Part shown: piece by piece, positions 1,156-35,924 of the stretch
Layout: each line of letters begins with the position of its first letter
Position numbering within the stretch: the stretch's first letter is position 1
IMG/VR virus record: IMGVR_UViG_3300042387_002461
Span: 2,517-66,516 of that record
Length of the DNA: 64,000 nucleotides
Source of the DNA: a virus
Direction: 5' to 3' (one strand)
Program-made: the position numbers and the translations under genes
Notes under the pieces: model-generated
Databases searched by the model: none
What the model saw: the letters and a program-made list of their open reading frames with translations, nothing else
What the model was told of the DNA's origin: nothing

Positions 1156-1698
1156 TTAGATCTTAGAGCTTTTTTGATTTAGCTCAACAGTAATTCCGTT
1201 CTCAATAAACTCTTGCACTTCCTCATCAATAATTGCTCCTCCGTTATGAACAATGCTAACAACTTCTTTATAAATCTTAAAAGCCTGCCTCTCAAAGAAT
1301 GCATTAGCTTTTTCGATGCCCATTTGCTCATACCAACATTGAATCTGAGGAAATTGAGGGGAAGCATGAAAGATACATCCATTATGAAAGTTCCCAAGCC
1401 AGCAAATCATAAAGATTCCTCCCTTGACTCCTTTCTCTCTGCACATAAACTCCCAACACACTGCACGCTCTTCAGAAGGAAGATTCTTATAACGATTCAG
1501 AGTTGTGTCATACTTTCCGTCTAAAAAGATAATCGAGCGCCCTTTCTTTGTAACAAATTCTTTAAGAGCCGGCACATTGCTATCATCCATATAGGCTCCA
1601 CGAATTGTTGGCCACTTAACTTTCTCTTTCCTTATTGAAAAGAACGGAGACGTTAGCTTGCGGCGATTCATTGAAATCTTCTTTTGAGGTTTGTCCAT
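1156..1698 (-). CDS. hypothetical protein
   Basis: 180 aa ORF directly behind a TTGACCTGTCC promoter. Confidence 0.75.
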   Translation of the reverse strand: MDKPQKKISMNRRKLTSPFFSIRKEKVKWPTIRGAYMDDSNVPALKEFVTKKGRSIIFLDGKYDTTLNRYKNLPSEERAVCWEFMCREKGVKGGIFMICWLGNFHNGCIFHASPQFPQIQCWYEQMGIEKANAFFERQAFKIYKEVVSIVHNGGAIIDEEVQEFIENGITVELNQKSSKI

Positions 1699-1742
1699 GC
1701 CAAGAAGATTATAGAACTTTTAAGGACAGGTCAATAAAAGAT

Positions 1743-2165
1743 TCAACGCTTATTAGGTTGAATGTATTTGTCTAAAAAATCTCCACCATTGCCAACCATT
1801 TCAGCAGCCCTTATCTTTTGTATTTGCTGCGGAGTAAGGCTTTCGATTCGTTTCAAATATTCTGCTACTGTTATATTATCAATCGTATGGCTTGGATTGC
1901 TTGCAACCATTTTAGAAAATGCTGCATGCTTTTTCTTTAAGAACTCGTCTCTTGGTCCAAGTTTACTTAGGAAGTCGCTTTTAGAAGCCTTTGCTTCGAT
2001 CGGAACAGGTTGTTGAGTCTTTGAACAAGAATCATCCTTACAAGCAGCACCGCCAAGAGCAATTGCTCCAGCAGCGAGAGCACCCTTCACGCCATTCCAA
2101 TTCAATTCGCTCAAAAGAATTTCGTTATAAGCTTCTTCAAGTAGGATTTGGTCTTTTGATTTCAT
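1743..2165 (-). CDS. MKSKDQxLLEEAY-family protein with internal hydrophobic/lipobox-like segment
   Basis: MKSKDQILLEEAY then KGALAAGAIALGGAAC. Confidence 0.8.
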   Translation of the reverse strand: MKSKDQILLEEAYNEILLSELNWNGVKGALAAGAIALGGAACKDDSCSKTQQPVPIEAKASKSDFLSKLGPRDEFLKKKHAAFSKMVASNPSHTIDNITVAEYLKRIESLTPQQIQKIRAAEMVGNGGDFLDKYIQPNKR

Positions 2166-2920
2166 TTTTGTTGAGTGAGCAATTTAGACAAGAATTGTAG
2201 TTCTTGGGAAAGTTTAGTTGCAGTGAATTGAGCTGCCCCTGCACCAGTCGGACCTGCCGAGCTACCCATCGATTTAGTCAACCACCCTAAAAGTCCTCTA
2301 ATTCTCTCCTTTGTTGACCCTTGTACTTTGGCGTCTAGCGATTTAAGCATATTGAGCGCCGTTTCTATATTTCTCTGTTGAGGCATACGTTTATTCAGAA
2401 GATCATTGCTTAAGCGACTTAGTTCTAGAGCAAACCGCTTTTGATCGAAACTCGTGCCGGATGCAGGAGCTGGTTTACTAACAGCAGCAGGAGTCTGTTT
2501 AGCGAACTGTCGAGTTTGAGGCAATTGCTGCTTATTGTTAGGAGATTGCTGGGTTGCAGAAGAGGCACTAGCATTTATTTTGCCAAGTGCTTGAAAGGTG
2601 TCGATAGTTCTCTTTATTTGAGAAGTGGGAGCACCCACTCCAGAGGAGTATTTGTCTGCATCAGTAGGGTTGTATTGCGTCTCAAGACTTTTTTGTAAAG
2701 ACAATAGAGCATTTATTACCTCCTGCGTTTTTTCTGCCTCGTACACGTTCCATAGATCTAACGTATCGCTCCATTGTGTGTACAAACTTTTTACTGAAGG
2801 AGATTGTCTCATGCTTGCATCCAAAGCAGACATGGACTTTGTAATTTTGTCTATTGCAGACTTATTATTCACAATTTGCCCGTAAGCTTCTTCTAACAAT
2901 GTTTGGTCTTTGGACTTCAT
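2162..2920 (-). CDS. MKSKDQxLLEEAY-family protein (putative internal head protein)
   Basis: AATAAATAAACTCATG start context; shared N-terminus. Confidence 0.8.
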   Translation of the reverse strand: MKSKDQTLLEEAYGQIVNNKSAIDKITKSMSALDASMRQSPSVKSLYTQWSDTLDLWNVYEAEKTQEVINALLSLQKSLETQYNPTDADKYSSGVGAPTSQIKRTIDTFQALGKINASASSATQQSPNNKQQLPQTRQFAKQTPAAVSKPAPASGTSFDQKRFALELSRLSNDLLNKRMPQQRNIETALNMLKSLDAKVQGSTKERIRGLLGWLTKSMGSSAGPTGAGAAQFTATKLSQELQFLSKLLTQQK

Positions 2921-13223: not shown

Positions 13224-14013
13224 AACAGAAAAGATCTTAGAGAGTAGTTGCGGACAAGTCGAGAATTATTTTTGAAGTTGTCTTGTCCTTTTGAATAGTT
13301 GCCAATAAATCCATCGAAAGGATGGAAGGATGGCTTTCAGGAAGCGCTCTCGTCTCTCCACCGAATGCGCTGGTAGCACGGCAGAGAGAAAAGCTATGGA
13401 GAGAAACTTTGAGAGAGAAAGTCTCTTAATCTCTTTCGTTCTTCCATTTAGACCTCTTATAGTCTTTTGCAGACTTGAAGGCTCTTGGAGCTGGAAGAGT
13501 TGGTTTACGAATTGATTTAAGACATTCTAGCTGAGTTGGAAGCTTTTTCATACAACAGACCTTCAAGAAACCTTCTGGACATCTCAACTATTTTTTGGGT
13601 TGCTTGAAGGGAATCAAACCCTCTCCGTCTCCGCCACAAGGAGAAGTGCTAATCGTTACACCACAAGCAACATATGAAATTAACTCTTCTTTCGCGGCCT
13701 TCCAACTTTCTTTGCAAGAACTTTCTTCTTTGAAGGATAAACTGTGCTCATGAACTTTGGCATCTCCTCACTTGCACAAGACCTAATAATCCTCAGATAA
13801 GCCTCTGGAGGCAGACAAGTTTGGTAATTGTTCTCAGAAGCAGAATTAAAGCCGTTCATAGAATTTCAAAAAGATAATCTGGTTCCAATCCATTTTCGTA
13901 AAGAACTTCTTCAGGATCTTCACCATCAAGTACCATCAATCTCATTTCCTTGATTGAGTGCTTTGCTTCTTGTTCCGTCAGGCCTTGGCCAGACATTAGT
14001 GCTTCTTTGAGGC

Positions 14014-15309: not shown

Positions 15310-15980
15310 TGGTGGAGGCGAGGGGACACTTACCCACAAATTTCTCTGTGGCGTGGACTATGTCTTCAACCCTGTGGGCTGACGGATGCTTATTTTTAAA
15401 TGAGCGAGATGCTCATTTTTTACCTGTACTCAGGTAGTCTCTGAACGTTCTTCTTTTTTAAGAAGCTCCGCTTAACGTTGCCATGCAACTTTTTAGTTGT
15501 TTAGGTTTCACTAAATTCTTCCGTTTTTTTCATCAAGCATTACTGCTTGAGGCGACGATTTTCATCGCACCCCTGTCTTTATAACGTTTACATAATAACT
15601 CTTCACATGCTTGGAAGGATTTAGCATTTGTTGACAAAAGGCTGCTATGGCTCAACGGCCTATCTTTTAATGTCTGCCTACACGAGCGAAAGGTCTCGTA
15701 TTACCTCTGTGCTTGTTTTTCCATGATCTATAACAGTTCATCAAAACCTCTGCAGTTCAAAGTAGATTTAGAGGATCCTCTACTAGGCTCTTAGGCAGCA
15801 AGAACTTCGCAGCCAAAGCTAGCGAGGATCTCGTCAGCGTTGTTTACAATGCTCTCGGCTTCTGCCAAGATATCAGAATTAGATTCTGCTTTTAGTTTTT
15901 AATCGATTTTAACGTGGCCATCGATCAACCACGGCATGCGTCATTAGTATCAATCATAAATCGATATCTATTGCGCCCCC
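15310..15980 (-). ncRNA. ssrA: tmRNA (exons 15980..15564 and 15326..15310)
   Basis: 5' GGGGGCG pairs with 3' CGCCTCC-A-CCA incl. G3.U70; pk1 CCGTGG/CCACG and TTGATCGAT/ATCGATTAA; tag frame 15889..15791 ending LAA-stop; T-arm AGGGG-TGCGATT-CCCCT after intron removal. Confidence 0.95.
15327..15563 (-). mobile_element. group I intron (237 nt, no ORF) in tmRNA T-loop
   Basis: P1 GCGAU/GUCGC with U.G at 5' splice site; CAGAGACTA and AAGACATAGTCC (P7 GACUA/UAGUC); terminal G. Confidence 0.92.
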
Positions 15981-27660: not shown

Positions 27661-28875
27661 CTAAATGTTCATTTCTTGGCTACTCTGGACTATAAGCTCA
27701 GAGCCATCAGTTTTAAAGAACCCATCAGGCTTCCAATAAAAGCCGTCACCGAGATTCAATTTCTGACCAAGAAAAGCAAAAGGTACTGGAGAAAGATCTT
27801 GCTCATGATTTAGAGCTGCGTTTAAATCAGCATCTATCTCATTCTTGCATCCTTTACAGGAATAAACTTTCTTTTTCCTATTCGCTTTTCTTACCAGTCC
27901 ACAATTAGAGCATCTCTGAGAGCGATAAGCACAAGACTGCTCTACAACTGGAACCTCCAGCTCTTCACATCTGCGTTTAATCTTATCACGTATCTCAGGA
28001 TTGCTCCAATGGGACATACTTCTAGAGGTAGATTTTCCAAGTCTTATATTAGAGACCTTTTCAAGACGAACCTCTTTTACGTCTTTAAAATTGAGTTGGT
28101 TAACAGAGTAGTTAACGAAATTCTTTTTGTGAGTACAAGCTTTCTTGAAAGCCTTAGAGCCTTTCTTTTTTCTAGAAAGCTTTGCAATAATGCTTTCGTA
28201 AGAATGTCCGTGAGGACAATACTTGGGTGTAGTTTGTCCATCACTCAGCGTACAAAGATCTTTCATTCCTTGATCAATGCCGATAATCTTGTCTCCTTGC
28301 TCGTGTGGATTGCGTTCCCAGTCCCAAGAGAGTTGAAAGCGATCTTTAAAAAGTTTTAGCGATCCGCACAAAGTGGCTTTTCTGTCCTCTTTCCATTTAT
28401 CATATTGAGAACTCTTGTTGATAGGAATTAAAATTTGTCCATATTTAGAACCAACGTGACGAATTCTAACAAATCCTTCAAAATGACCTTCTTTGTCTAT
28501 TTCAAAATCAACACAATTGGAACTGAGTTGAGGAGCCACAAACACGATATTTGGCTTAGAGAACTTAACGTCTTTTACGTCTTTGTTTTTATGTTCTTTG
28601 ATCCAATTCTTTCTTCTTTGTTTTTCGATAGCAGAACGAATAATTGCTCCTGCTTGATTGACAGCACATTGAAAAGCTTTTCGACTCAGCTCAGTTTCTA
28701 CAGGAATTGTCTTGTAGTCAGGAAATTTAGGTAATTCTAGCTTCTCATTTAAGTTATCCCAAAGATAATCTATAGACGCGAGACAGGCTTTGCTATAATC
28801 TTCAACAAAAACAAGGAGACGATCTTGCTTGTCTTTATTTGCAAAGGTATAAGAATGTCTTGTTGAACCGATCAT
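27661..28875 (-). CDS. tnpB: TnpB RNA-guided endonuclease
   Basis: RuvC-I IIGIDQG, RuvC-II VRLE, Zn finger CSNC/CKGC, RuvC-III DADLNAALN; all three acidic residues present. Confidence 0.92.
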   Translation of the reverse strand: MIGSTRHSYTFANKDKQDRLLVFVEDYSKACLASIDYLWDNLNEKLELPKFPDYKTIPVETELSRKAFQCAVNQAGAIIRSAIEKQRRKNWIKEHKNKDVKDVKFSKPNIVFVAPQLSSNCVDFEIDKEGHFEGFVRIRHVGSKYGQILIPINKSSQYDKWKEDRKATLCGSLKLFKDRFQLSWDWERNPHEQGDKIIGIDQGMKDLCTLSDGQTTPKYCPHGHSYESIIAKLSRKKKGSKAFKKACTHKKNFVNYSVNQLNFKDVKEVRLEKVSNIRLGKSTSRSMSHWSNPEIRDKIKRRCEELEVPVVEQSCAYRSQRCSNCGLVRKANRKKKVYSCKGCKNEIDADLNAALNHEQDLSPVPFAFLGQKLNLGDGFYWKPDGFFKTDGSELIVQSSQEMNI

Positions 28876-28961: not shown

Positions 28962-29242
28962 TATTTTATTTAATCAAAATGATCAAATTTTCTTCTGTTT
29001 GCAGAAAATATTTTTGGGCTAAGATGTTGTTATGAAAGTTTACTAATATGAACTATTTTGCACTAAAAAATGTTAATGTATGTTATACTCTTTTAAGCTC
29101 ATTGCAAAGAGAGGACTATCAAACATAATGTCTATGAGATTTGGATCCTCGTTATTGAGAAGACTTTGCAACTCTTCTTCGTTTTTAACATCTGTGAGGT
29201 TAACAATGATTTCTCCTTCTTGGTCCAAAATTTTCATAAGTT

Positions 29243-29446
29243 TTAGATAATGTTGTTGCGGAGATAATTCAGTGCTTCTACATAAAGCACATTCATGCGA
29301 TCTTCATAGCAATCGTCAAATCCTTCGTCTTCTTCGTTCTTGTCACTCATGTCTGGAATGCAAATGTCTTCTTGAAGTGCTGGAAGGATTGTAGATTCAA
29401 GGAGATAATTGAGTTGATCAATTTGAGTTTGTGATAGTTTTGTCAT
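29243..29446 (-). CDS. hypothetical early cassette protein
   Basis: Own promoter. Confidence 0.7.
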   Translation of the reverse strand: MTKLSQTQIDQLNYLLESTILPALQEDICIPDMSDKNEEDEGFDDCYEDRMNVLYVEALNYLRNNII

Positions 29447-29478
29447 GGTTTTGATATTAGAGATTTGTTATGGACAGC

Positions 29479-29730
29479 TCAAGCTCTTTTGATAACTTGA
29501 AATTTGTCGAGTTCAATATAAACACGATACACTCGACCAGTCCTGTCTTGCACATCAAAGGTCTTGTTGCTCACTTTAACTACGACAGCCTGATGAGAAT
29601 AAGGAGGTACGATCTCGATTGTAGAATGAAATGCGGGAATGTTAGTAGGAGGATAGTAGAAGATTTCATCTCCTACAGACACAAGAAGTTTAGCTTTTGG
29701 CTCTTGATCAGATTCTTTGATTAGTTTCAT
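29479..29730 (-). CDS. hypothetical early cassette protein (SH3/KOW-like)
   Basis: VGDEIF...VVVKV...FDV; own promoter. Confidence 0.7.
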   Translation of the reverse strand: MKLIKESDQEPKAKLLVSVGDEIFYYPPTNIPAFHSTIEIVPPYSHQAVVVKVSNKTFDVQDRTGRVYRVYIELDKFQVIKRA

Positions 29731-29781
29731 AACGAGAATGATATTAGAGATTGTTTGTGGACAGGTCGAGAAAAAGTTCTC

Positions 29782-30105
29782 TCAATCGATACTAAATAAA
29801 CAAGCATAGTAATTTTTCTTTGCATTCATCCATGCTGGTTTAATCTTTGGAAATGTGAAGGTTCTGTAAGAATCATTAACAAAGTTTTTGCTTAACTTCA
29901 CACTCAAATACTCTTCGTACTCCTTAACTTCTTCAATCATACCGTTTTCCTCCCATTTAGCAATCTTATTTTTAACTCGCTCTAAAACTTTATCTTCTTC
30001 AATGTCAACATTACATTCATACGAACCTCTGCCTGAGTGAGTTGATTTTCCTTTTACGTTCAACTCTTTTCTCATCCAACTGACCGCACTTTGTAGTTTT
30101 TTCAT
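29782..30105 (-). CDS. hypothetical protein, paralog of C-terminal half of 33368..33952
   Basis: L..KG...H.GRG.Y...KI..W...YRT. Confidence 0.75.
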   Translation of the reverse strand: MKKLQSAVSWMRKELNVKGKSTHSGRGSYECNVDIEEDKVLERVKNKIAKWEENGMIEEVKEYEEYLSVKLSKNFVNDSYRTFTFPKIKPAWMNAKKNYYACLFSID

Positions 30106-30140
30106 AACAGGAATGATATTAGTGATTGTTTGTGGACAGA

Positions 30141-31061
30141 TCAATCAATTTTCTTATAAGTTGCTTCTGCTCCTCGGCCTTCTTTAGAAGCCTTGCCTTC
30201 TGTGACGAGCTGACGAAGGATTGTGTTCAGGTATGCTCCGTTCACTTCAGACTCTCGAACGATCTGAGCAACGGTCTTGGGCTCTGTGAGTAGTTCAAGG
30301 ACTTGGTCGGCTTTAGAGGCTTTTTTTGCGGCAGATTTACGATCCGGACTGTTATCAGCTGCTACTGCTTCGAATGTATATCCATTTGCTCCGAATGGGA
30401 AAGTAGTGTAAGAGCAAGCTCCGAAGCGATTTTTGTGTAAGATCAAATCTCGAAGATTGTGATCGTCCTCGTTTTTAATCAAAGTAGCGAAAATATCAAT
30501 GGAATGAATTATGCCTGTACCACCTTTAAAATTGCCTCCCTTAGTGAAGTGCATAATAATTAACATGCATACTTCACGCTCTTTAGCAAGGTTTACAAGA
30601 CGGCCAGTAATATATTCCTCCCTTTCTCGAGAGTTCATGTCCTTCTTCTTTGTAGAGATAGTTGGAAAAGAATCAATCACAATAAAATCCAAGCCCATCT
30701 CGATCACTGCTTCTTCAATATCTTCTACATATACAAGATTTGCAATAGGAACCGACAAAGCATTCAACCTCTTCGCAGCAAATGCCACTTGCTCAAGAGT
30801 CTCTTCTCCGGAGATGTATGCAGTCTTCTTTCCAGTCTCTTCGAGAGCTTGGAGCAGCTGCAAAGAAATAGAGCTCTTGCCAACGCCTGCTGGAGCCGCC
30901 AGGGTGATCACAGAACCCGGAAGAAAGCCTTCTTGGCCGAAGGCTTCGTCAAGATCAGGAATGCCGGTCTTGAACTTGCGGTTATAAATTTCTGGAACTC
31001 GGACTTCTCCAGCTCTCGTGAAGTTCTTGTTAACAGTATTTTTTGATTGGATTGCTTGCAT
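30141..31061 (-). CDS. RadA/Sms-like RecA-fold ATPase with C-terminal wHTH
   Basis: Walker A APAGVGKS, YISGEE, Walker B IVIDS, KNRFG; start corrected to 31061. Confidence 0.85.
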   Translation of the reverse strand: MQAIQSKNTVNKNFTRAGEVRVPEIYNRKFKTGIPDLDEAFGQEGFLPGSVITLAAPAGVGKSSISLQLLQALEETGKKTAYISGEETLEQVAFAAKRLNALSVPIANLVYVEDIEEAVIEMGLDFIVIDSFPTISTKKKDMNSREREEYITGRLVNLAKEREVCMLIIMHFTKGGNFKGGTGIIHSIDIFATLIKNEDDHNLRDLILHKNRFGACSYTTFPFGANGYTFEAVAADNSPDRKSAAKKASKADQVLELLTEPKTVAQIVRESEVNGAYLNTILRQLVTEGKASKEGRGAEATYKKID

Positions 31062-31162
31062 AATGGTTGAATCTTTAAATACTCTCAATGCTCTTGAAGG
31101 ACTCCTCAAGATTCTTTTTTTGAAAACTGCTCTCTGAATTGCTCTCAAAGACCGCAGGCATT

Positions 31163-31206
31163 CATAGCGATTCTTGGCGCTAGAATGCGTTTAAAATCGT
31201 TTTGTT
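31163..31206. repeat. 44-bp dispersed intergenic repeat, copy 4
   Basis: CATAGCGATTCTTGGCGCTAGAATGCGTTTAAAATCGTTTTGTT. Confidence 0.85.
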
Positions 31207-31231
31207 GAATTTTTGGAAGACTGCTCTGGAA

Positions 31232-31264
31232 AAAGGAAAGGACCTCCTTTTTAGAGGTCCTTTC
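31232..31264 (-). terminator. intrinsic terminator
   Basis: GAAAGGACCTC/GAGGTCCTTTC plus T tract. Confidence 0.75.
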
Positions 31265-31314
31265 GCAACAGTTGTTGGCTTCTATGACGAATTAAATGAC
31301 TTCAGCCGGCTTTG

Positions 31315-31614
31315 TTAATCTCGAATCACTCGTCCGTTGTTGCCGAGAAATATCAACGATTGCGGAGGAATGTCTCCAGGATCCTTCATGCCACCGAAGC
31401 GGACCAGGGCCCTTTTTAACTCCGTCCACAATTCTGGATTTTCGCCGTGTGTTCGAATCAATTCCACAATATCCTGACGTAACTTATGAGCCAACTCTTT
31501 TGGATGTTGCCCTGGAGGATGTGATGAGGGGTTCTCTTTTGGGAGCACATGAGCTTCTTCGAGTAATTGTGTATTGAGGACTTTGTCTACGAGTTGATCG
31601 AATTTACGTTTCAT
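31315..31614 (-). CDS. late protein with CTS-like N-terminus
   Basis: TAAATA; MKRKFDQLVDKVLNTQLLEEA. Confidence 0.7.
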   Translation of the reverse strand: MKRKFDQLVDKVLNTQLLEEAHVLPKENPSSHPPGQHPKELAHKLRQDIVELIRTHGENPELWTELKRALVRFGGMKDPGDIPPQSLIFLGNNGRVIRD

Positions 31615-31680
31615 ATTGTTTATTTAACTAAAATGATCTCAGAGTTTGTTTGCGGACACTTCAAGAAGATTTTTAATCTT

Positions 31681-31792
31681 TGGAAGGAGACTTTGGTTGG
31701 GATCGAACCAACGGCTTGTGCTTGTTCCCCAGCATTTGGTCCTTCACCTTGAGGGGGCTACTGCTCTGCCAACTGAGCTACAAAGTCTTCTC
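31681..31792 (-). tRNA. non-canonical tRNA-like element (no assignable anticodon)
   Basis: Acceptor GACTTTG/CAAAGTC, TA, D-arm GCTC-AGTTGGCA-GAGC, T-arm GTTGG-TTCGATC-CCAAC; 49-nt atypical anticodon/variable region; 3' TCCTTCCA. Confidence 0.7.
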
Positions 31793-31942
31793 GAATTTTT
31801 CTTTTGCTTCCTGACTGCTCTGCAAAACTTTTCCTACACACATTCGTTCATCTTCTGACAAAAAGTTCCACATGGACTGCTCTGTCAGAATCTTCACGAG
31901 ATCAAACAAATTTGTTTCGAGTTGTTCAATATAAGTGTTCAT
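31778..31942 (-). CDS. 54-aa protein whose last codons overlap the tRNA-like acceptor stem
   Basis: MNTYIEQLETNLFDL...EKFEKTL-TAG; ATGA-coupled upstream. Confidence 0.6.
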   Translation of the reverse strand: MNTYIEQLETNLFDLVKILTEQSMWNFLSEDERMCVGKVLQSSQEAKEKFEKTL

Positions 31943-31992
31943 CGTTTGACAATTAAGACGATTAGAATGAGGAGGAGAAGAATGTCAGTCAT
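31939..31992 (-). CDS. 17-aa hydrophobic micropeptide MTDILLLLILIVLIVKR
   Basis: Exactly fills gap; TAATATG upstream and ATGA downstream coupling. Confidence 0.5.
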   Translation of the reverse strand: MTDILLLLILIVLIVKR

Positions 31993-31993
31993 A

Positions 31994-32344
31994 TTAGAAA
32001 TTGATTTCGTTTTCTTTAACTCGATCGATAAAGCATTCTCCATCATAGACTTCTATAACAAGCTCTTCATTGTCTCCTTTGTTATCAAAGAAGTTTTCAA
32101 CAAAGTTAATTTCTTCAGAAGTCAAACAAAGATAAGTGTTTCCTTCTGCAAAGATTTTTGAATAATTTCCATTAACTGCATCTTGCACAAGAGTCTTTGA
32201 AGACTGGAGATGTTCAAGAATCTCATCCATCGAACTGTCTCTAAGAACGTCTTGAAACATATCTGAAGTGTTTTCTCGAATGTTCTTGTCAATTGAGTCT
32301 CGTTGGAGTTTCAAAGTATGGACTGATTTAGAAGTAATGTTCAT
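31994..32344 (-). CDS. hypothetical protein
   Basis: 116 aa ORF. Confidence 0.7.
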   Translation of the reverse strand: MNITSKSVHTLKLQRDSIDKNIRENTSDMFQDVLRDSSMDEILEHLQSSKTLVQDAVNGNYSKIFAEGNTYLCLTSEEINFVENFFDNKGDNEELVIEVYDGECFIDRVKENEINF

Positions 32345-32348
32345 AAGT

Positions 32349-32504
32349 TTAATTGTTTTGTTTGACCTCTACAGCAACTGTCATTTTTCCTTCTTGCAGC
32401 TCGAAAGCTTTTCCGAGATAATAATTCTTTGCTTCTTCCAGAGTTGCATTCATTGATGTGGTGACTGAATTTCCGTCTTTAAAACGAATAGTGAAGTTGT
32501 TCAT
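32349..32504 (-). CDS. hypothetical early cassette protein
   Basis: Start corrected; T.MN.TLEEA..YYLG. Confidence 0.7.
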   Translation of the reverse strand: MNNFTIRFKDGNSVTTSMNATLEEAKNYYLGKAFELQEGKMTVAVEVKQNN

Positions 32505-32546
32505 AACAGAAAAGATCTTAGAGATTGTTTGTGGACAGTTCAAGAA

Positions 32547-32864
32547 TTATTTTTGCAAACATGCTAAAATTCTTCCATAAAATGCATCAAATCCATCAAA
32601 GCTTTTAATCTTAAATTGGTCATTATCAAGTTGTTTGAGAACATTTTCTTCTAAACCAATCCTGATAACGTCTTCTATAGTAAGTCCTTCCTTTACTAAC
32701 TTTACAGTTACATGCTTGCATTGTTTCCATGTTTTGCAATCTTCCCAACTGAGCAAAATAGCAACTTTGCCTTGGTAATAACCTATGCAGAAGTCTCTAT
32801 AAACGTTTTTGACTACTTGGACTTCGTTGACTTTAACATTATAATAAGTGTGAGGTTTGTTCAT
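32547..32864 (-). CDS. hypothetical early cassette protein
   Basis: Own promoter. Confidence 0.7.
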   Translation of the reverse strand: MNKPHTYYNVKVNEVQVVKNVYRDFCIGYYQGKVAILLSWEDCKTWKQCKHVTVKLVKEGLTIEDVIRIGLEENVLKQLDNDQFKIKSFDGFDAFYGRILACLQK

Positions 32865-32904
32865 AACAAAAAAGATAATAGAGATTGTTCAGGGACACTA
32901 CAAC

Positions 32905-32942
32905 AAAAAAAGTCTCTGTAACCTTTTGGATTACAGAGACTC
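32905..32942 (-). terminator. intrinsic terminator
   Basis: AGTCTCTGTAA/TTACAGAGACT plus T tract. Confidence 0.8.
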
Positions 32943-32969
32943 TTATAACTCTTTCTAGCTTAAATTATT

Positions 32970-33332
32970 TCACAGTTTGTAAGCAATTTTTCTAATAGTT
33001 TCATTATTAGCAAATAAACGTACTACAGCTAAACTCATATCATACTCTACACCCCAAGTTCTCCAAACTCCTTTAAAACCAACCTTTTCCTTCAACTTAA
33101 GCAACTTACTTTCAACTTCATTAATATCTTCTTCTTCAGCATTACAATCTAACATATACTCTTTCAACTCTTTAAGCCCTTCTTCAAAAGTTACTTCTGC
33201 ACTAGTATCTTCATCTTCAACAAATTCAACAAACTCTGTAAGCCCTTGAGAATCATCAAGCACTTCTCCAGAATCTGCACTATAACCAACGCTTTTAATT
33301 ACTGTGATGTAGTTTTTAGTAGTAGTATTCAT
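32970..33332 (-). CDS. hypothetical acidic early cassette protein
   Basis: Start corrected. Confidence 0.75.
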   Translation of the reverse strand: MNTTTKNYITVIKSVGYSADSGEVLDDSQGLTEFVEFVEDEDTSAEVTFEEGLKELKEYMLDCNAEEEDINEVESKLLKLKEKVGFKGVWRTWGVEYDMSLAVVRLFANNETIRKIAYKL

Positions 33333-33367
33333 AACAGAAAAGATCTTAGAGATTGCTTGTGGACAGA

Positions 33368-33952
33368 TCAAACTTCTTTTTCAAGTTGTTTAACTAGTCT
33401 GAGAAATTCGTCTTCAGATATTCCGTACTTTGTTTCAGCATCCAATGGACTAGCACTAAATATAACGCCAAAACAATTATCTCGTTTACAAAATGCTGCA
33501 GTTCTGTAGTTCTCATCAAAGTATTCGTTTGTGAATACAATCTTTACGTCCTGCTTATTAAACTCAATATCTTCAATGAGTTTGAGTTCTTTCCATTCCT
33601 CGATCTTTTTATTTAAACGTTCTGAAACAACATCCCACTTTTCATTGAATCCTCCAATATAAGCTCCTCTGCCTGTATGTTCTGTAGATCCTTTAATTTT
33701 AAGTTGTTGTCTCAAGAAAGTATTCAAACTTCTTTTCTTCCAATATGCACAACCATGCCTTGAATCAAGATATAGATTAAGCTCTTGTTTTGTTTTAAAA
33801 TTCAAACCCATCAATTTTTCAGCTTGATCGATACAATCTCTCGTACTTGTTCCTTTTATTTTAAAAGCTATTTTAGTTAACCTTACTTTTTTATCATGCA
33901 GCCAAATTTCAAGTTCTGTTGGATTAGCAATTTGTTTTTTTGGTTTGTTCAT
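33368..33952 (-). CDS. hypothetical early cassette protein
   Basis: Start corrected to 33952. Confidence 0.75.
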   Translation of the reverse strand: MNKPKKQIANPTELEIWLHDKKVRLTKIAFKIKGTSTRDCIDQAEKLMGLNFKTKQELNLYLDSRHGCAYWKKRSLNTFLRQQLKIKGSTEHTGRGAYIGGFNEKWDVVSERLNKKIEEWKELKLIEDIEFNKQDVKIVFTNEYFDENYRTAAFCKRDNCFGVIFSASPLDAETKYGISEDEFLRLVKQLEKEV

Positions 33953-33992
33953 AACAGGACTGACTATCGACAAGCTGAGAGGACAAAGCAAC

Positions 33993-34021
33993 AAAAAAAG
34001 AGGTCCAAAGGACCTCTTTTT
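33993..34021. terminator. bidirectional intrinsic terminator
   Basis: AAAAAAAGAGGTCC AAA GGACCTCTTTTT. Confidence 0.75.
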
Positions 34022-34043
34022 GTTATTAAACTGTTTGAGTGTA

Positions 34044-34520
34044 TCAACCAACAATACCTAAACCAGCAAAACGAGCTGGAGAGTCACCAAAAAACGTAAA
34101 GACAGTTCCTTGACCAGAGTCTGGGTGATACTCTCGTTTCATATCTTGCAAGCTACGTTTTAGTTTATTTAAATCAAAATTACCCGCTTCCTTGCCTACT
34201 CTTGAATACTCTCTCAATTGTTGTTCTGCAAATTCTATAACTTGTTGTGCACCTGCATCGAAAGAGTCAGGAAACTCAACTGAATCCATATCTATGTCTT
34301 CTATATTCCTAAGAATTCTCACCGGTTTAATTATTCCTGTTCGATGCCCATTCACGTAACCACCATGCTCAAAATCATTGAAATCCCAAGCAACAGCATC
34401 CATGAATTCGCTTATATCTATGCCTACGTCAGGATGTTCTTTGTCAATTGAGACAAACGTTCTGCTGGGTTTGGCTTCGTTAAGAATTTTTGATACTAAT
34501 TTATTGAATTTTGTTTTCAT
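34044..34520 (-). CDS. late protein with CTS-like N-terminus
   Basis: GATAAATA; MKTKFNKLVSKILNE. Confidence 0.7.
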   Translation of the reverse strand: MKTKFNKLVSKILNEAKPSRTFVSIDKEHPDVGIDISEFMDAVAWDFNDFEHGGYVNGHRTGIIKPVRILRNIEDIDMDSVEFPDSFDAGAQQVIEFAEQQLREYSRVGKEAGNFDLNKLKRSLQDMKREYHPDSGQGTVFTFFGDSPARFAGLGIVG

Positions 34521-34604
34521 ACAATTTTATTTATCTATTTTTGTTTTTTTTTTGCGGAAATCTCTAATTTATTTAAAAAATATTAGAGATTGTTCAGGGA
34601 CAGT

Positions 34605-34811
34605 TCAAGAATTATCTTCTGGAACATAACTCATGAGTGCTTCTTCAAACCCTCCAAAGTTCTTGAACAAATTTATTAAGCTCTCTTCAATTGCTTCTCT
34701 GGTCACCTTGGACTCTTGCATCTGAAGGTTTGAAGAAACTATTTGCAAAAGATAGTCAGCACTTTCTCTGTCAAGCTTTTGAAAGGCTTCTAGAATTTCT
34801 TGGTTGGTCAT
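34605..34811 (-). CDS. hypothetical early cassette protein
   Basis: Own promoter; stop overlaps next -35. Confidence 0.7.
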   Translation of the reverse strand: MTNQEILEAFQKLDRESADYLLQIVSSNLQMQESKVTREAIEESLINLFKNFGGFEEALMSYVPEDNS

Positions 34812-34854
34812 CTTTTGAGAGTATTGAGGATTGAGAAGGACACTTCAAGAAAAA

Positions 34855-34935
34855 ACTCGAGCCTTGCTCCAACAAGAATTTATATCGACCAAAATATGAA
34901 AAGTATGTCGGAAAGCAAGGCTTGAGTGATAAGTA
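34855..34935 (+). promoter_or_regulatory. long hairpin abutting late promoter GATAAGTA of HNH gene
   Basis: ACTCGAGCCTTGCT/AGCAAGGCTTGAGT. Confidence 0.7.
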
Positions 34936-34949
34936 ATTATGACCAAATT

Positions 34950-35924
34950 ATGAAAAGTTTATCATTATATAACCTAGATGGCTCTCTGTCTCTAGAGGCA
35001 CAGCAGCTACTATCACATAGACCCGACGGCGTGTCAATAGCGGATTGGAGGAAAACGTTAAAAAAATTTAGAGATCAGCTGTCTCCAGAAGATCTTAAAG
35101 AGTTTGAAAGACTCAGAAACAATAAGCGATATGCAAAACGGAGAGACACAAAACGCAAACGTAAAGAACAGCAGATTACCGAACCTCTGGCGAAAGTAAG
35201 TTTATATGAACAAGACAGAGTTTTGCGTGCAGAAGCACAGCAGCTACTATCACATAGACCTGATGGCGTGTCAATAGCGGATTGGAGGAAAATGCTAAAA
35301 GATTTTAGATCGCAACTTTCCTCAGAAGATTGCAAAGAATTTCAAAGACTCAGAAAAAATAAGCGAGATGCAAAACGGAGAGCTGAGAATCCTGAAAAAA
35401 TAAGAACGGAAAATGCAAAATGGAGAGCTGAAAATCCTGAAAAAGTAGCAAAATGGTATGCTGAAAATCCCGAAAAAGCAAAAGAAACCAATGCTAAATG
35501 GAGAGCTGCAAATCTTGACCACACGAACAACTACCACAAGCAACGCAGAGCTACAGACCCTCTCTTCCATCTTCATTGCAATATGAGAAGTAATTGCAGG
35601 AGAGTTGTTAAACAGCTATCTCTCGGAAAGAAACCTGTAAGCACATTTAAATGGATTGGATGCTCTCCAGAGGAACTTAAAGCTCATCTCGAATCTCTCT
35701 TCACAGAAGGAATGACTTGGGAAAATTATGGCAAAGACGGTTGGCACGTTGATCACATTCGTCCTGTGTGCTCATTCACTGCAGAAGAATGGGAACAGGT
35801 CAATCACTATACTAACCTCCAACCTCTTTGGGCTGAAGACAATCTTGCTAAGATAGTTTTTGATAAACGACAAAGAGTAAAGAAAGAGACTCCTGCACAA
35901 GAAGAGTCTCCTCCATTGTTATGA
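34950..35924 (+). CDS. HNH endonuclease with duplicated N-terminal domain and W(R/Y)AENP repeats
   Basis: EAQQLLSHRPDGVSIADWRK twice; GCS...EGMTWENYG..GWHVDHIRP...NHYTNLQPLW..DN. Confidence 0.85.
   Translation: MKSLSLYNLDGSLSLEAQQLLSHRPDGVSIADWRKTLKKFRDQLSPEDLKEFERLRNNKRYAKRRDTKRKRKEQQITEPLAKVSLYEQDRVLRAEAQQLLSHRPDGVSIADWRKMLKDFRSQLSSEDCKEFQRLRKNKRDAKRRAENPEKIRTENAKWRAENPEKVAKWYAENPEKAKETNAKWRAANLDHTNNYHKQRRATDPLFHLHCNMRSNCRRVVKQLSLGKKPVSTFKWIGCSPEELKAHLESLFTEGMTWENYGKDGWHVDHIRPVCSFTAEEWEQVNHYTNLQPLWAEDNLAKIVFDKRQRVKKETPAQEESPPLL

Follow-up and report, generated by a model that had tools for sequence, protein, structure and literature searches.

A family of tRNA-shaped phage RNAs with a conserved module in place of the anticodon loop

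A gene for an RNA shaped like a transfer RNA (tRNA), 100 nt in length, lies on the minus strand of a 64,000-nt stretch of viral DNA (positions 2,517 to 66,516 of the IMG/VR record IMGVR_UViG_3300042387_002461; the whole stretch is hereafter called the window) and runs from window position 31787 (G1) to 31688 (the discriminator T). The gene has relatives in other viral contigs, and in all of them a module of about 34 nt takes the place of the 7-nt anticodon loop. There is very little doubt that these genes form a real RNA family maintained by selection, and the sequence comparisons make it probable that the RNA is non-decoding. On balance, we also lean towards a fuller reading of the same comparisons, in which the RNA would be a phage-restricted, non-decoding tRNA-like molecule that is matured like a tRNA and in which the module would be the selected working part.

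The acceptor stem of the window copy (7 bp, GACTTTG/CAAAGTC), its D arm (GCTC-AGTTGGCA-GAGC) and its T arm (GTTGG-TTCGATC-CCAAC) are tRNA-like, and a normal anticodon loop is missing. This combination had been noticed in an earlier, sequence-only reading of the window, and it is real: with the Rfam tRNA model RF00005 the minus-strand element scores 44.1 bits (cut-off 29; E 4.2e-6 for the window), with all 71 model positions matched and with 40 nt in the anticodon arm where the model has 13. The long insert between the arms is likewise real, although the distance from the D stem to the T stem is 50 nt by our count and not the 49 nt given earlier; it is about 22 nt in a class I tRNA. ARAGORN in its default mode does not call the element. 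With introns allowed, a check that the sequence-only reading had proposed, its sole result is a 'Thr(cgt)' with a 3-nt intron, a forced fit in which the stems are mismatched. Two covariance models, R1 and R2, were built for the family, and the window copy scores 88.5 bits with R2 (E 4e-18, where the E-values of these home-made models are rough).

The relatives were gathered in several steps. A search of five related virus records with the Rfam tRNA model added two long copies (99 and 100 nt), which share the T arm and the block CTCAWGGTNAAGGRCC with the window copy and have entirely different, yet paired, acceptor stems. The first motif scan of viral contigs gave 41 loci, of which 38 are tRNA-like and three are chance matches in GC-rich coding sequence, and yielded 34 distinct sequences, the window copy included. 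With two looser scans, in each of which only one half of the module was specified, the count rose to at least 52 distinct sequences of 98–122 nt. This number, a lower bound, comprises the sequences that pass a filter on the acceptor stem and the D arm; the filter was applied to at least 128 candidate stretches and passed 56, four of which are ordinary tRNAs or no tRNAs at all. Five further members, two of them with a variant T stem, raise the number of distinct relatives to at least 57.

After position 26, the parts of the RNA follow in the order outer helix, inner helix, UCA-N, GGY-NAAGG-RCC, NAAAYGCY, return of the inner helix, A-rich bulge, return of the outer helix, and NNGCC. The outer helix is the remnant of the anticodon stem. 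The module is thus built from a kinked stem (the stem remnant, the A-rich 3' bulge and the inner helix), the UCA-N linker, a 3-bp hairpin and the NAAAYGCY strand, and the anticodon domain is about 27 nt longer than that of a tRNA. Two classes can be distinguished. Class A, to which the window copy belongs, has 4–5 outer and 3–4 inner pairs. Class B has two outer pairs, an internal loop with AA opposite GUAAA, and five inner pairs.

Among the 52 members, the linker reads UCA-N in 46 and is replaced by a longer stretch in five; in the 47 members with a 4-nt linker (including one UUAU), N is U in 31, C in nine, A in six and G in one. Six members (L233, L270, L255, L247, L314 and L316) carry an extra hairpin at N. 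The third pair of the hairpin is U-A in 27 members, U-G in 15 and C-G in 10, and never C-A. The GC before the last base of NAAAYGCY is kept in 50 of the 52, and the bulge reads GUAAA (18 members), AUAAA (4), GAAAA (3), AAUAA (3) or another A-rich variant. In all, about 25 near-invariant bases lie in the loops and junctions of the module around short covarying helices. Several of the invariant positions are independent of the search patterns. GCC of the variable loop and G49 are invariant in all 34 members of the first scan, whose pattern left these bases unspecified; AAGG and RCC are present in 32/32 members retrieved with the scan pattern that did not include them; and GGY occurs in all 20 members unique to the scan without a specified 5' half, as UCA does in most of them. 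The bases of the tRNA elbow (U8, A14, G15, G18, A21 and the T-loop TTCGA) are also invariant, and G19 nearly so. Across the homologues the insert is conserved more strongly than the acceptor stem.

The helices are supported by compensatory change. In the class A alignment (22 rows), 95.8% of the cells are paired, and the covariation is 0.495 compared with a mean of 0.145 in shuffled alignments; in the class B alignment (20 rows), 99.4% of the cells are paired, and the covariation is 0.571 compared with 0.174. None of 500 shuffles reaches the observed value in either class. When the partners are slid by 1–3 columns, only 25–51% (class A) and 26–45% (class B) of the cells remain paired. Every helix covaries in both alignments. 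For example, all five pairs of the outer helix have changed on both sides in class A, and three of the five inner pairs are compensatory in class B, with 100% of the cells paired. The acceptor stems have diverged completely, yet 98.6–98.7% of their cells are paired, and six of the seven pairs have changed on both sides. Of the alternative pairings that the sequence-only reading had offered for the insert, CCCC/GGGG and GGT/ACC are kept and covary in the relatives; in contrast, TGCT/AGCA shows no covariation (69% of cells paired, a value that 321/500 shuffles reach) and was discarded. A mutual-information scan of the loop and junction columns returned only the known helices and no additional tertiary pairs.

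The family lacks the canonical anticodon arm, in which a stem of 5 bp carries a 7-nt loop that has U33 and purine 37. To see whether such an arm could be generated by the removal of an intron, every single excision that leaves class I spacing was considered, and a product was accepted if it had at least four of five stem pairs, a 7-nt loop, U33 and purine 37. An excision of this kind exists in two of the 52 members and in none of the other 50. Moreover, there is no conserved identity set for one amino acid in the family: the discriminator base is U in 23 members, A in 21, C in four and G in four, the 3-70 pair is G-U in six of the 52, and the pairs 1-72 and 3-70 vary freely. With both the anticodon loop and an identity set missing, it is probable that the RNA does not decode, and the earlier judgement that the element is not an ordinary decoding tRNA is upheld. 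One candidate 'anticodon', C-A-N reading the start codons AUG, UUG and GUG, was considered and rejected, because N is also G (L262) and whole hairpins are inserted at N.

Other tRNA genes are present in the fetched flank at 24 of the 34 loci, always on the same strand as the member, and the nearest is no more than 16 nt away at 19 loci. Normal tRNA genes, among them those of Met(CAU), Arg(UCU) and Glu, accompany the members in their arrays, so that no decoder is missing from these. The possibility that the family hides an isoacceptor absent from the arrays (Arg UCU was suspected) was rejected, since Arg(UCU) and all other amino-acid families occur, also in member-holding records. Genes for transfer-messenger RNA (tmRNA) were seen in three member-holding arrays, at L089:3683-4033, L119:1835-2192 (minus strand) and L238:3810-4132. 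They match the Rfam families beta_tmRNA and tmRNA_permuted with 73–132 bits; in L238 the beta_tmRNA match (73.4 bits) is below the cut-off of 84 and the tmRNA_permuted match passes. These genes hint at betaproteobacterial hosts for some of these phages. In a 283-kb viral record with a family member, ARAGORN calls a tRNA with anticodon CTA (L087:668-743, minus strand; labelled Pyl), a possible amber suppressor.

As far as our searches reach, the family is restricted almost wholly to viral contigs. The class A model has exactly one match of 98–114 nt per record in all 24 member-holding records to which it was applied, with 62–115 bits, and ordinary tRNAs score at most 62 bits. In 596 Gb of prokaryote genomes the first motif has 58 matches, of which only one (L133) is tRNA-like, and this one is on a 190-kb contig of a metagenome bin. 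Beside it are a gene for an RtcB-type RNA ligase (1523-2773, minus strand; PHROG 1075, E 4.7e-140) and an HNH endonuclease gene (23-538); the terminase match of this bin comes from a different contig. In viral contigs, no relatives were found with exact 35-base or arm-only patterns, and a locus search with the single RadA-like protein encoded near the element found nothing; an alignment-based search succeeded. Two of the 45 records with RadA relatives hold a member, where all 45 are fragments with a completeness of at most 27%. In GenBank phages, blastn found no match to window positions 29000-35000 and none to a class A member, and with a class B member it gave only matches of D-arm length, with no record covering 80% of the query. 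The 'tRNA-OTHER' of Serratia phage BF was examined as a possible relative and is an ordinary 76-nt suppressor tRNA. In the short contigs of four DNA sequencing runs, a relative in run X5 has an unchanged core and differences at N39, at one J3 base, in the bulge and in the outer helix; no joints were seen in these contigs.

The placement in tRNA arrays, together with the intact elbow, acceptor stem and T arm, suggests how the RNA may be made. It would be transcribed with the neighbouring genes, RNase P and the 3' trimming and CCA-adding enzymes would release it as they do the adjacent tRNAs, and it would accumulate as a stable species of about 100 nt. The product would decode no codons and would not be charged by one fixed synthetase. 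The tRNA body would provide for maturation, stability and perhaps docking, and the module would present the functional surface, to which a protein or an RNA binds as partner. The pattern of constraint points to selection on the module, the T stem and the variable loop, with the sequence of the acceptor stem free. The partner may recognise both the module and the inner face of the L; alternatively, the module may fold back on the tRNA core.

A number of observations weigh against this proposal. The folding energy of the single sequence is unexceptional (z -0.64; 57 of 200 shuffles fold as well), and therefore the case for a structure beyond chance rests on the comparison with the relatives. The members were gathered by sequence patterns, by which the apparent conservation of the specified bases is inflated and divergent relatives are missed; the invariance of those bases is thus partly built in. 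No protein gene is conserved beside the member loci, no gene co-occurs with the family, and no partner of the RNA was identified. Among the listed sequencing runs that hold the locus, no RNA run is recorded. If C33 is allowed, an excision could produce a 'CUC' anticodon loop in 26 of the 52 members, mostly of class A. In addition, other long tRNAs of these phages leave recognisable split loops, which suggests that some tRNA splicing may exist in these systems. Finally, in the cases described in a published study, phage tRNAs overcome tRNA nucleases as cleavage-resistant decoders and not as decoys (PMC12445682).

The last point bears on a more specific form of the proposal, in which the RNA would be a decoy or inhibitor of a tRNA-directed host factor that grips anticodon arms, for example an immune tRNA nuclease. 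Immune tRNA nucleases, of which many are now described, are obvious candidate partners. Binding to a sensor, which the sequence-only reading had listed together with a decoy, or to some other partner is likewise a possible role. Judged from sequence features, the role of a decoy or inhibitor is a possibility to be put forward tentatively, being considerably less likely than not to be correct.

Another explanation, which we consider unlikely, is that the RNA is a natural tRNA-scaffolded aptamer or regulatory RNA, in which the module binds a small molecule or pairs with an RNA through the exposed NAAGG loop, and the tRNA body is there only to allow processing and to lend stability. The near-invariant loop and junction bases around short covarying helices would be expected of such an RNA. 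Folded functional RNAs often tolerate an extra hairpin at one defined site, as six members do at N, and the freedom of the acceptor stem to vary is also in its favour. However, the elbow, the T stem and the GCC of the variable loop are strongly conserved, beyond what a passive scaffold needs, no Rfam riboswitch, ribozyme or small-RNA family matches the module (in the window only tRNA is found at E up to 1), and no ligand or target emerged as a candidate. At ten loci, the members are overlapped only by families of the tRNA clan, at E up to 10. Likenesses seen by eye to the sarcin-ricin loop, the pistol and twister ribozymes, ToxI, the preQ1-I aptamer, signal recognition particle RNA and 5S rRNA were compared position by position and fail, with no support from Rfam. 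The class B internal loop (GAA opposite UAA) presumably recalls the UAA/GAN motif, a likeness that we take as a lead.

It is more doubtful still that the genes are those of tRNAs with a short intervening sequence, as the sequence-only reading had suggested among other things. About 27 extra bases would be removed by an undescribed bacterial or phage pathway, or by self-cleavage and ligation, and the product would be a decoding tRNA, such as a Glu(CUC)-like tRNA with C33. When C33 is tolerated, 33 of the 52 members have some excision to a 7-nt loop, the CUC loops mentioned above among the products, and in the atypical members L121 and L088 the resulting CUC loop is fully canonical. In contrast, the 50 members without a canonical product under the stricter rule do not fit this explanation, nor do 15 of the 24 class B members, which have no excision even with C33. 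The insert is more conserved than the supposed exons, the discriminator varies, and the member-holding arrays already carry Glu, Met and Arg tRNAs. The D arm, which by comparison with E. coli tRNAs we take to be of the Lys, Thr or Met type and not of the Glu type, also counts against a Glu-like product.

The layout of the anticodon domain may be read in either direction. Pre-tRNA introns have the order stem, 3' bulge, short helix and unpaired 5' side, and class A shows the same order; the family thus resembles the archaeal and eukaryal pre-tRNA introns processed by EndA and RtcB, which also place extra sequence in the anticodon domain. The archaeal and eukaryal bulge-helix-bulge, however, has two 3-nt bulges on opposite strands that are 4 bp apart, whereas in the family the 3' bulge has 4–6 nt, the helix has 3–5 bp, and on the 5' side a 4-nt linker leads into a hairpin. 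Moreover, class B keeps only 2 bp of the stem. The splicing endonuclease domain PF01974 occurs in none of 25 member-holding records, and RtcB (PF01139) occurs in one of these 25 and in three of 15 others, where the member-holding records are mostly fragments. The single member that lies about 1.8 kb from an RtcB ligase gene favours splicing; a general link to RtcB, which the gene beside L133 had prompted, was rejected on the same count of one record in 25. A group I intron was also considered and rejected. The catalytic core of such introns has about 200 nt or more, the insert has about 27, and no Intron_gpI match is found in window positions 31500-32000 at E up to 1; the same Rfam library does find a group I intron elsewhere in the window (15334-15576, minus strand; RF00028, 66 bits, cut-off 50).

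Two sets of over-long phage tRNAs speak for splicing. In phages similar to that of the window there are other tRNAs of 101–143 nt (L311, L312, L313 and L315; Table 1), with different inserts in the anticodon loop. By eye, their split loops correspond roughly to Ile UAU, Thr UGU, His GUG and Gly GCC, respectively. The inserts of L311 and L312 both start with TGAGAGT, and the anticodon of L312 is buried in a long continuous helix. From their sequences, these four inserts look like true intervening sequences. The second set is that of the Lak megaphages, whose tRNAs are reported to carry highly conserved 'enigmatic introns' (PMC6784885). Among the publications found, these are the nearest observation: they too are over-long phage tRNA genes with a conserved insert and no known splicing route. 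They differ from the present family in that their inserts are described as leaving a typed tRNA (Tyr GTA, Thr TGT).

The window copy stands between two small open reading frames (ORFs) on its own strand and overlaps the stop codon of the first, which raised the possibility of a processing mark: RNase P and RNase Z would cut the messenger RNA between the 54-aa ORF and the next one, or the element would be a tRNA-like 3' end of the upstream message. The overlap described in the sequence-only reading is correct (TAG of the 54-aa ORF forms tRNA positions 8–10). There is also no promoter-like site in 31200-32500 by a consensus scan, and a terminator-like hairpin follows the second ORF. Nevertheless, most relatives sit between tRNAs and not between ORFs, the same-strand tRNAs in the flanks and their close spacing being difficult to reconcile with a 3' structure on a message. 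The flanking ORFs are not linked to other members, and the conserved 34-nt module would be left unexplained. The comparison with record G001 given below, which suggests a movable cassette, also argues against a processing mark, and we regard this explanation as very improbable. The idea of a decaying tRNA pseudogene with a random insertion, which had been set as the refutation of the sequence-only reading and which could draw on the lack of a default ARAGORN call and on the chance-level fold of the single sequence, can practically be dismissed, because at least 57 distinct relatives keep the insert, in fact better than the acceptor stem, with compensatory changes in every helix and with diverged acceptor stems that are still paired.

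Several known RNAs resemble the family in part. The family shares with the canonical tRNA (RF00005) the 7-bp acceptor stem, the D and T arms, the elbow bases, the 5-nt variable loop and the place in phage tRNA arrays; members at ten loci score mostly 30–48 bits with RF00005, and the member in G002 is just below the cut-off with 28.6 bits. Unlike the canonical tRNA, it has no 7-nt U33 loop, has a conserved anticodon-domain sequence of its own and has no fixed discriminator. Among classical cases, the nearest analogues are rnaC and rnaD of phage T4 (species 1 and 2), which are small stable RNAs within the tRNA cluster of a T4-type phage; rnaC has a T arm and an acceptor-like stem at its end, and the phage of the window has T4-type baseplate and clamp-loader genes. 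However, they share neither the size nor the module of the family. At 139 and 119 nt, the two T4 RNAs are not recognised as tRNA by Rfam (rnaC matches only tRNA-Sec, with 17.5 bits and E 0.92), and the UCA-N-GGY-NAAGG-RCC module was not found when the T4 sequence was read by eye. To our knowledge, the function of rnaC and rnaD is still unknown.

YrlA (RF02553) and the tRNA-like domain of tmRNA likewise mimic a portion of a tRNA and do not decode. Their topologies are different: YrlA has its two ends in the Ro-binding stem, and tmRNA includes an ORF and has no D stem. Neither matches the element at E up to 1 (the gathering score of YrlA is 69 bits), and weak YrlA matches near members (19.8–30.8 bits) fall mainly on ordinary tRNAs or graze the 5' end of one member. 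In engineered tRNA-scaffold RNAs, a foreign module is carried on a tRNA body and is matured and stabilised by the tRNA enzymes of the cell, and in the tRNA-miRNA units of herpesviruses small RNAs are located next to a tRNA body. Our literature search found no natural phage RNA with a module in the anticodon arm of a tRNA, and a full-text search found no description of the module, the Lak introns being comparable by description only.

The coordinates of the element and of the neighbouring features are given in Table 1. Positions 74–76 of the window copy read CCT, and the CCA lies elsewhere: beyond the acceptor stem, leader and trailer can pair (GAGAA.../...TCCTT, with one mismatch and one G-T) and are followed by CCA. 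The extended acceptor stem of about 12 bp with CCA, as described in the sequence-only reading, is therefore present in the window, but it is not a trait of the family, being absent from the homologue flanks inspected.

Table 1. Coordinates of the tRNA-shaped gene, its parts, neighbouring features in the window, and other over-long tRNAs in similar phages
Feature	Position	Strand	Remarks
Whole tRNA-shaped RNA gene	31688..31787	-	RF00005 44.1 bits; R2 88.5 bits
Acceptor stem, 5' strand GACTTTG	31781..31787	-	Partner 31689-31695; 6/7 family pairs change on both sides
D arm GCTC-AGTTGGCA-GAGC with A14, G15, G18, G19, A21	31763..31778	-	Invariant family columns
Anticodon-stem remnant, 5' strand GTAGC	31757..31761	-	Pairs with GCAC 31718-31721; A29 bulged in window copy
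Inner helix, 5' strand CCCC	31753..31756	-	Pairs with GGGG 31727-31730
Linker TCA-A (family UCA-N)	31749..31752	-	Family alignment
Core hairpin GGT-GAAGG-ACC (family GGY-NAAGG-RCC)	31738..31748	-	Family alignment
Conserved single strand AAATGCT (family NAAAYGCY)	31731..31737	-	Family alignment
Inner helix, 3' strand GGGG	31727..31730	-	Pairs with CCCC 31753-31756
A-rich 3' bulge AACAA	31722..31726	-	A-rich variants across family
Anticodon-stem remnant, 3' strand GCAC	31718..31721	-	Pairs with GTAGC 31757-31761
Variable loop AAGCC	31713..31717	-	GCC conserved in family
T arm GTTGG-TTCGATC-CCAAC	31696..31712	-	RF00005 alignment; family covariation
Acceptor stem, 3' strand CAAAGTC	31689..31695	-	Partner 31781-31787
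54-aa ORF	31778..31942	-	Stop TAG = tRNA positions 8-10
Next small ORF downstream of element	31315-31614	-	Same strand as element
Terminator-like hairpin, 12 pairs (6 G-C) and T-rich tail	31236..31264	-	Between the 31315-31614 ORF and the RadA-like gene; consensus scan only
Over-long tRNA L311	G007:C1:21870-21970	-	Split loop by eye
Over-long tRNA L312	G014:C1:8053-8153	-	Split loop by eye
Over-long tRNA L313	G027:C1:5940-6082		Split loop by eye
Over-long tRNA L315	G029:C1:79179-79289	-	Split loop by eye

The window is part of a 66.5-kb virus record that is estimated to be 37% complete. Its genes include those of T4-type baseplate proteins, a gp44-type clamp loader, a dCTP deaminase-like protein and several HNH endonucleases, and a RadA-like ATPase gene lies about 540 nt downstream of the element. 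The 54-aa ORF has a 42%-identical match over 48 aa (E 7e-8) elsewhere in the related record G003, and this match is not adjacent to other family members. In G001, the closest complete relative (217 kb), RadA is 73% identical by tblastn, and a homologue of the upstream 116-aa ORF immediately precedes the RadA-like gene. Neither the 54-aa nor the 99-aa ORF has a match in G001, and model R2 gives only tRNA matches of ordinary length there. With these intervening ORFs and a family-type match absent from G001, the segment behaves as an insertion or deletion, which suggests that the element may be part of a movable cassette. G001 has two RadA-like ATPase genes (L003:1419-2333 and L006:4001-4891), which are 76% and 58% identical, respectively (tblastn; query alignment with the window protein as the first sequence). 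The window also encodes a TnpB/Cas12f1-like protein about 2.8 kb from the element (27661-28875, minus strand; PF07282, E 2.3e-13; OrfB_IS605 weak), and an ordinary tRNA-His(GTG) (13596-13670, minus strand) is the sole tRNA that default ARAGORN calls in it.

Standard tRNA finders either miss the family (default ARAGORN calls none of 34 members) or log it as an odd tRNA, and phage annotations are therefore blind to it; the covariance models R1 and R2 make it searchable. At present, the tRNA genes of phages are mostly taken to make up for host tRNAs that immune nucleases have destroyed, and the family does not fit this picture. If its members were spliced, there would be an undescribed route of tRNA splicing in bacteria or phages. 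If they were aptamers on a tRNA chassis, nature would have anticipated a tool of RNA engineering. If the RNA were a decoy or inhibitor, it would add an RNA weapon to the conflict over tRNA, as a form of RNA-based anti-defence and as the first natural tRNA-scaffolded effector RNA in phages.

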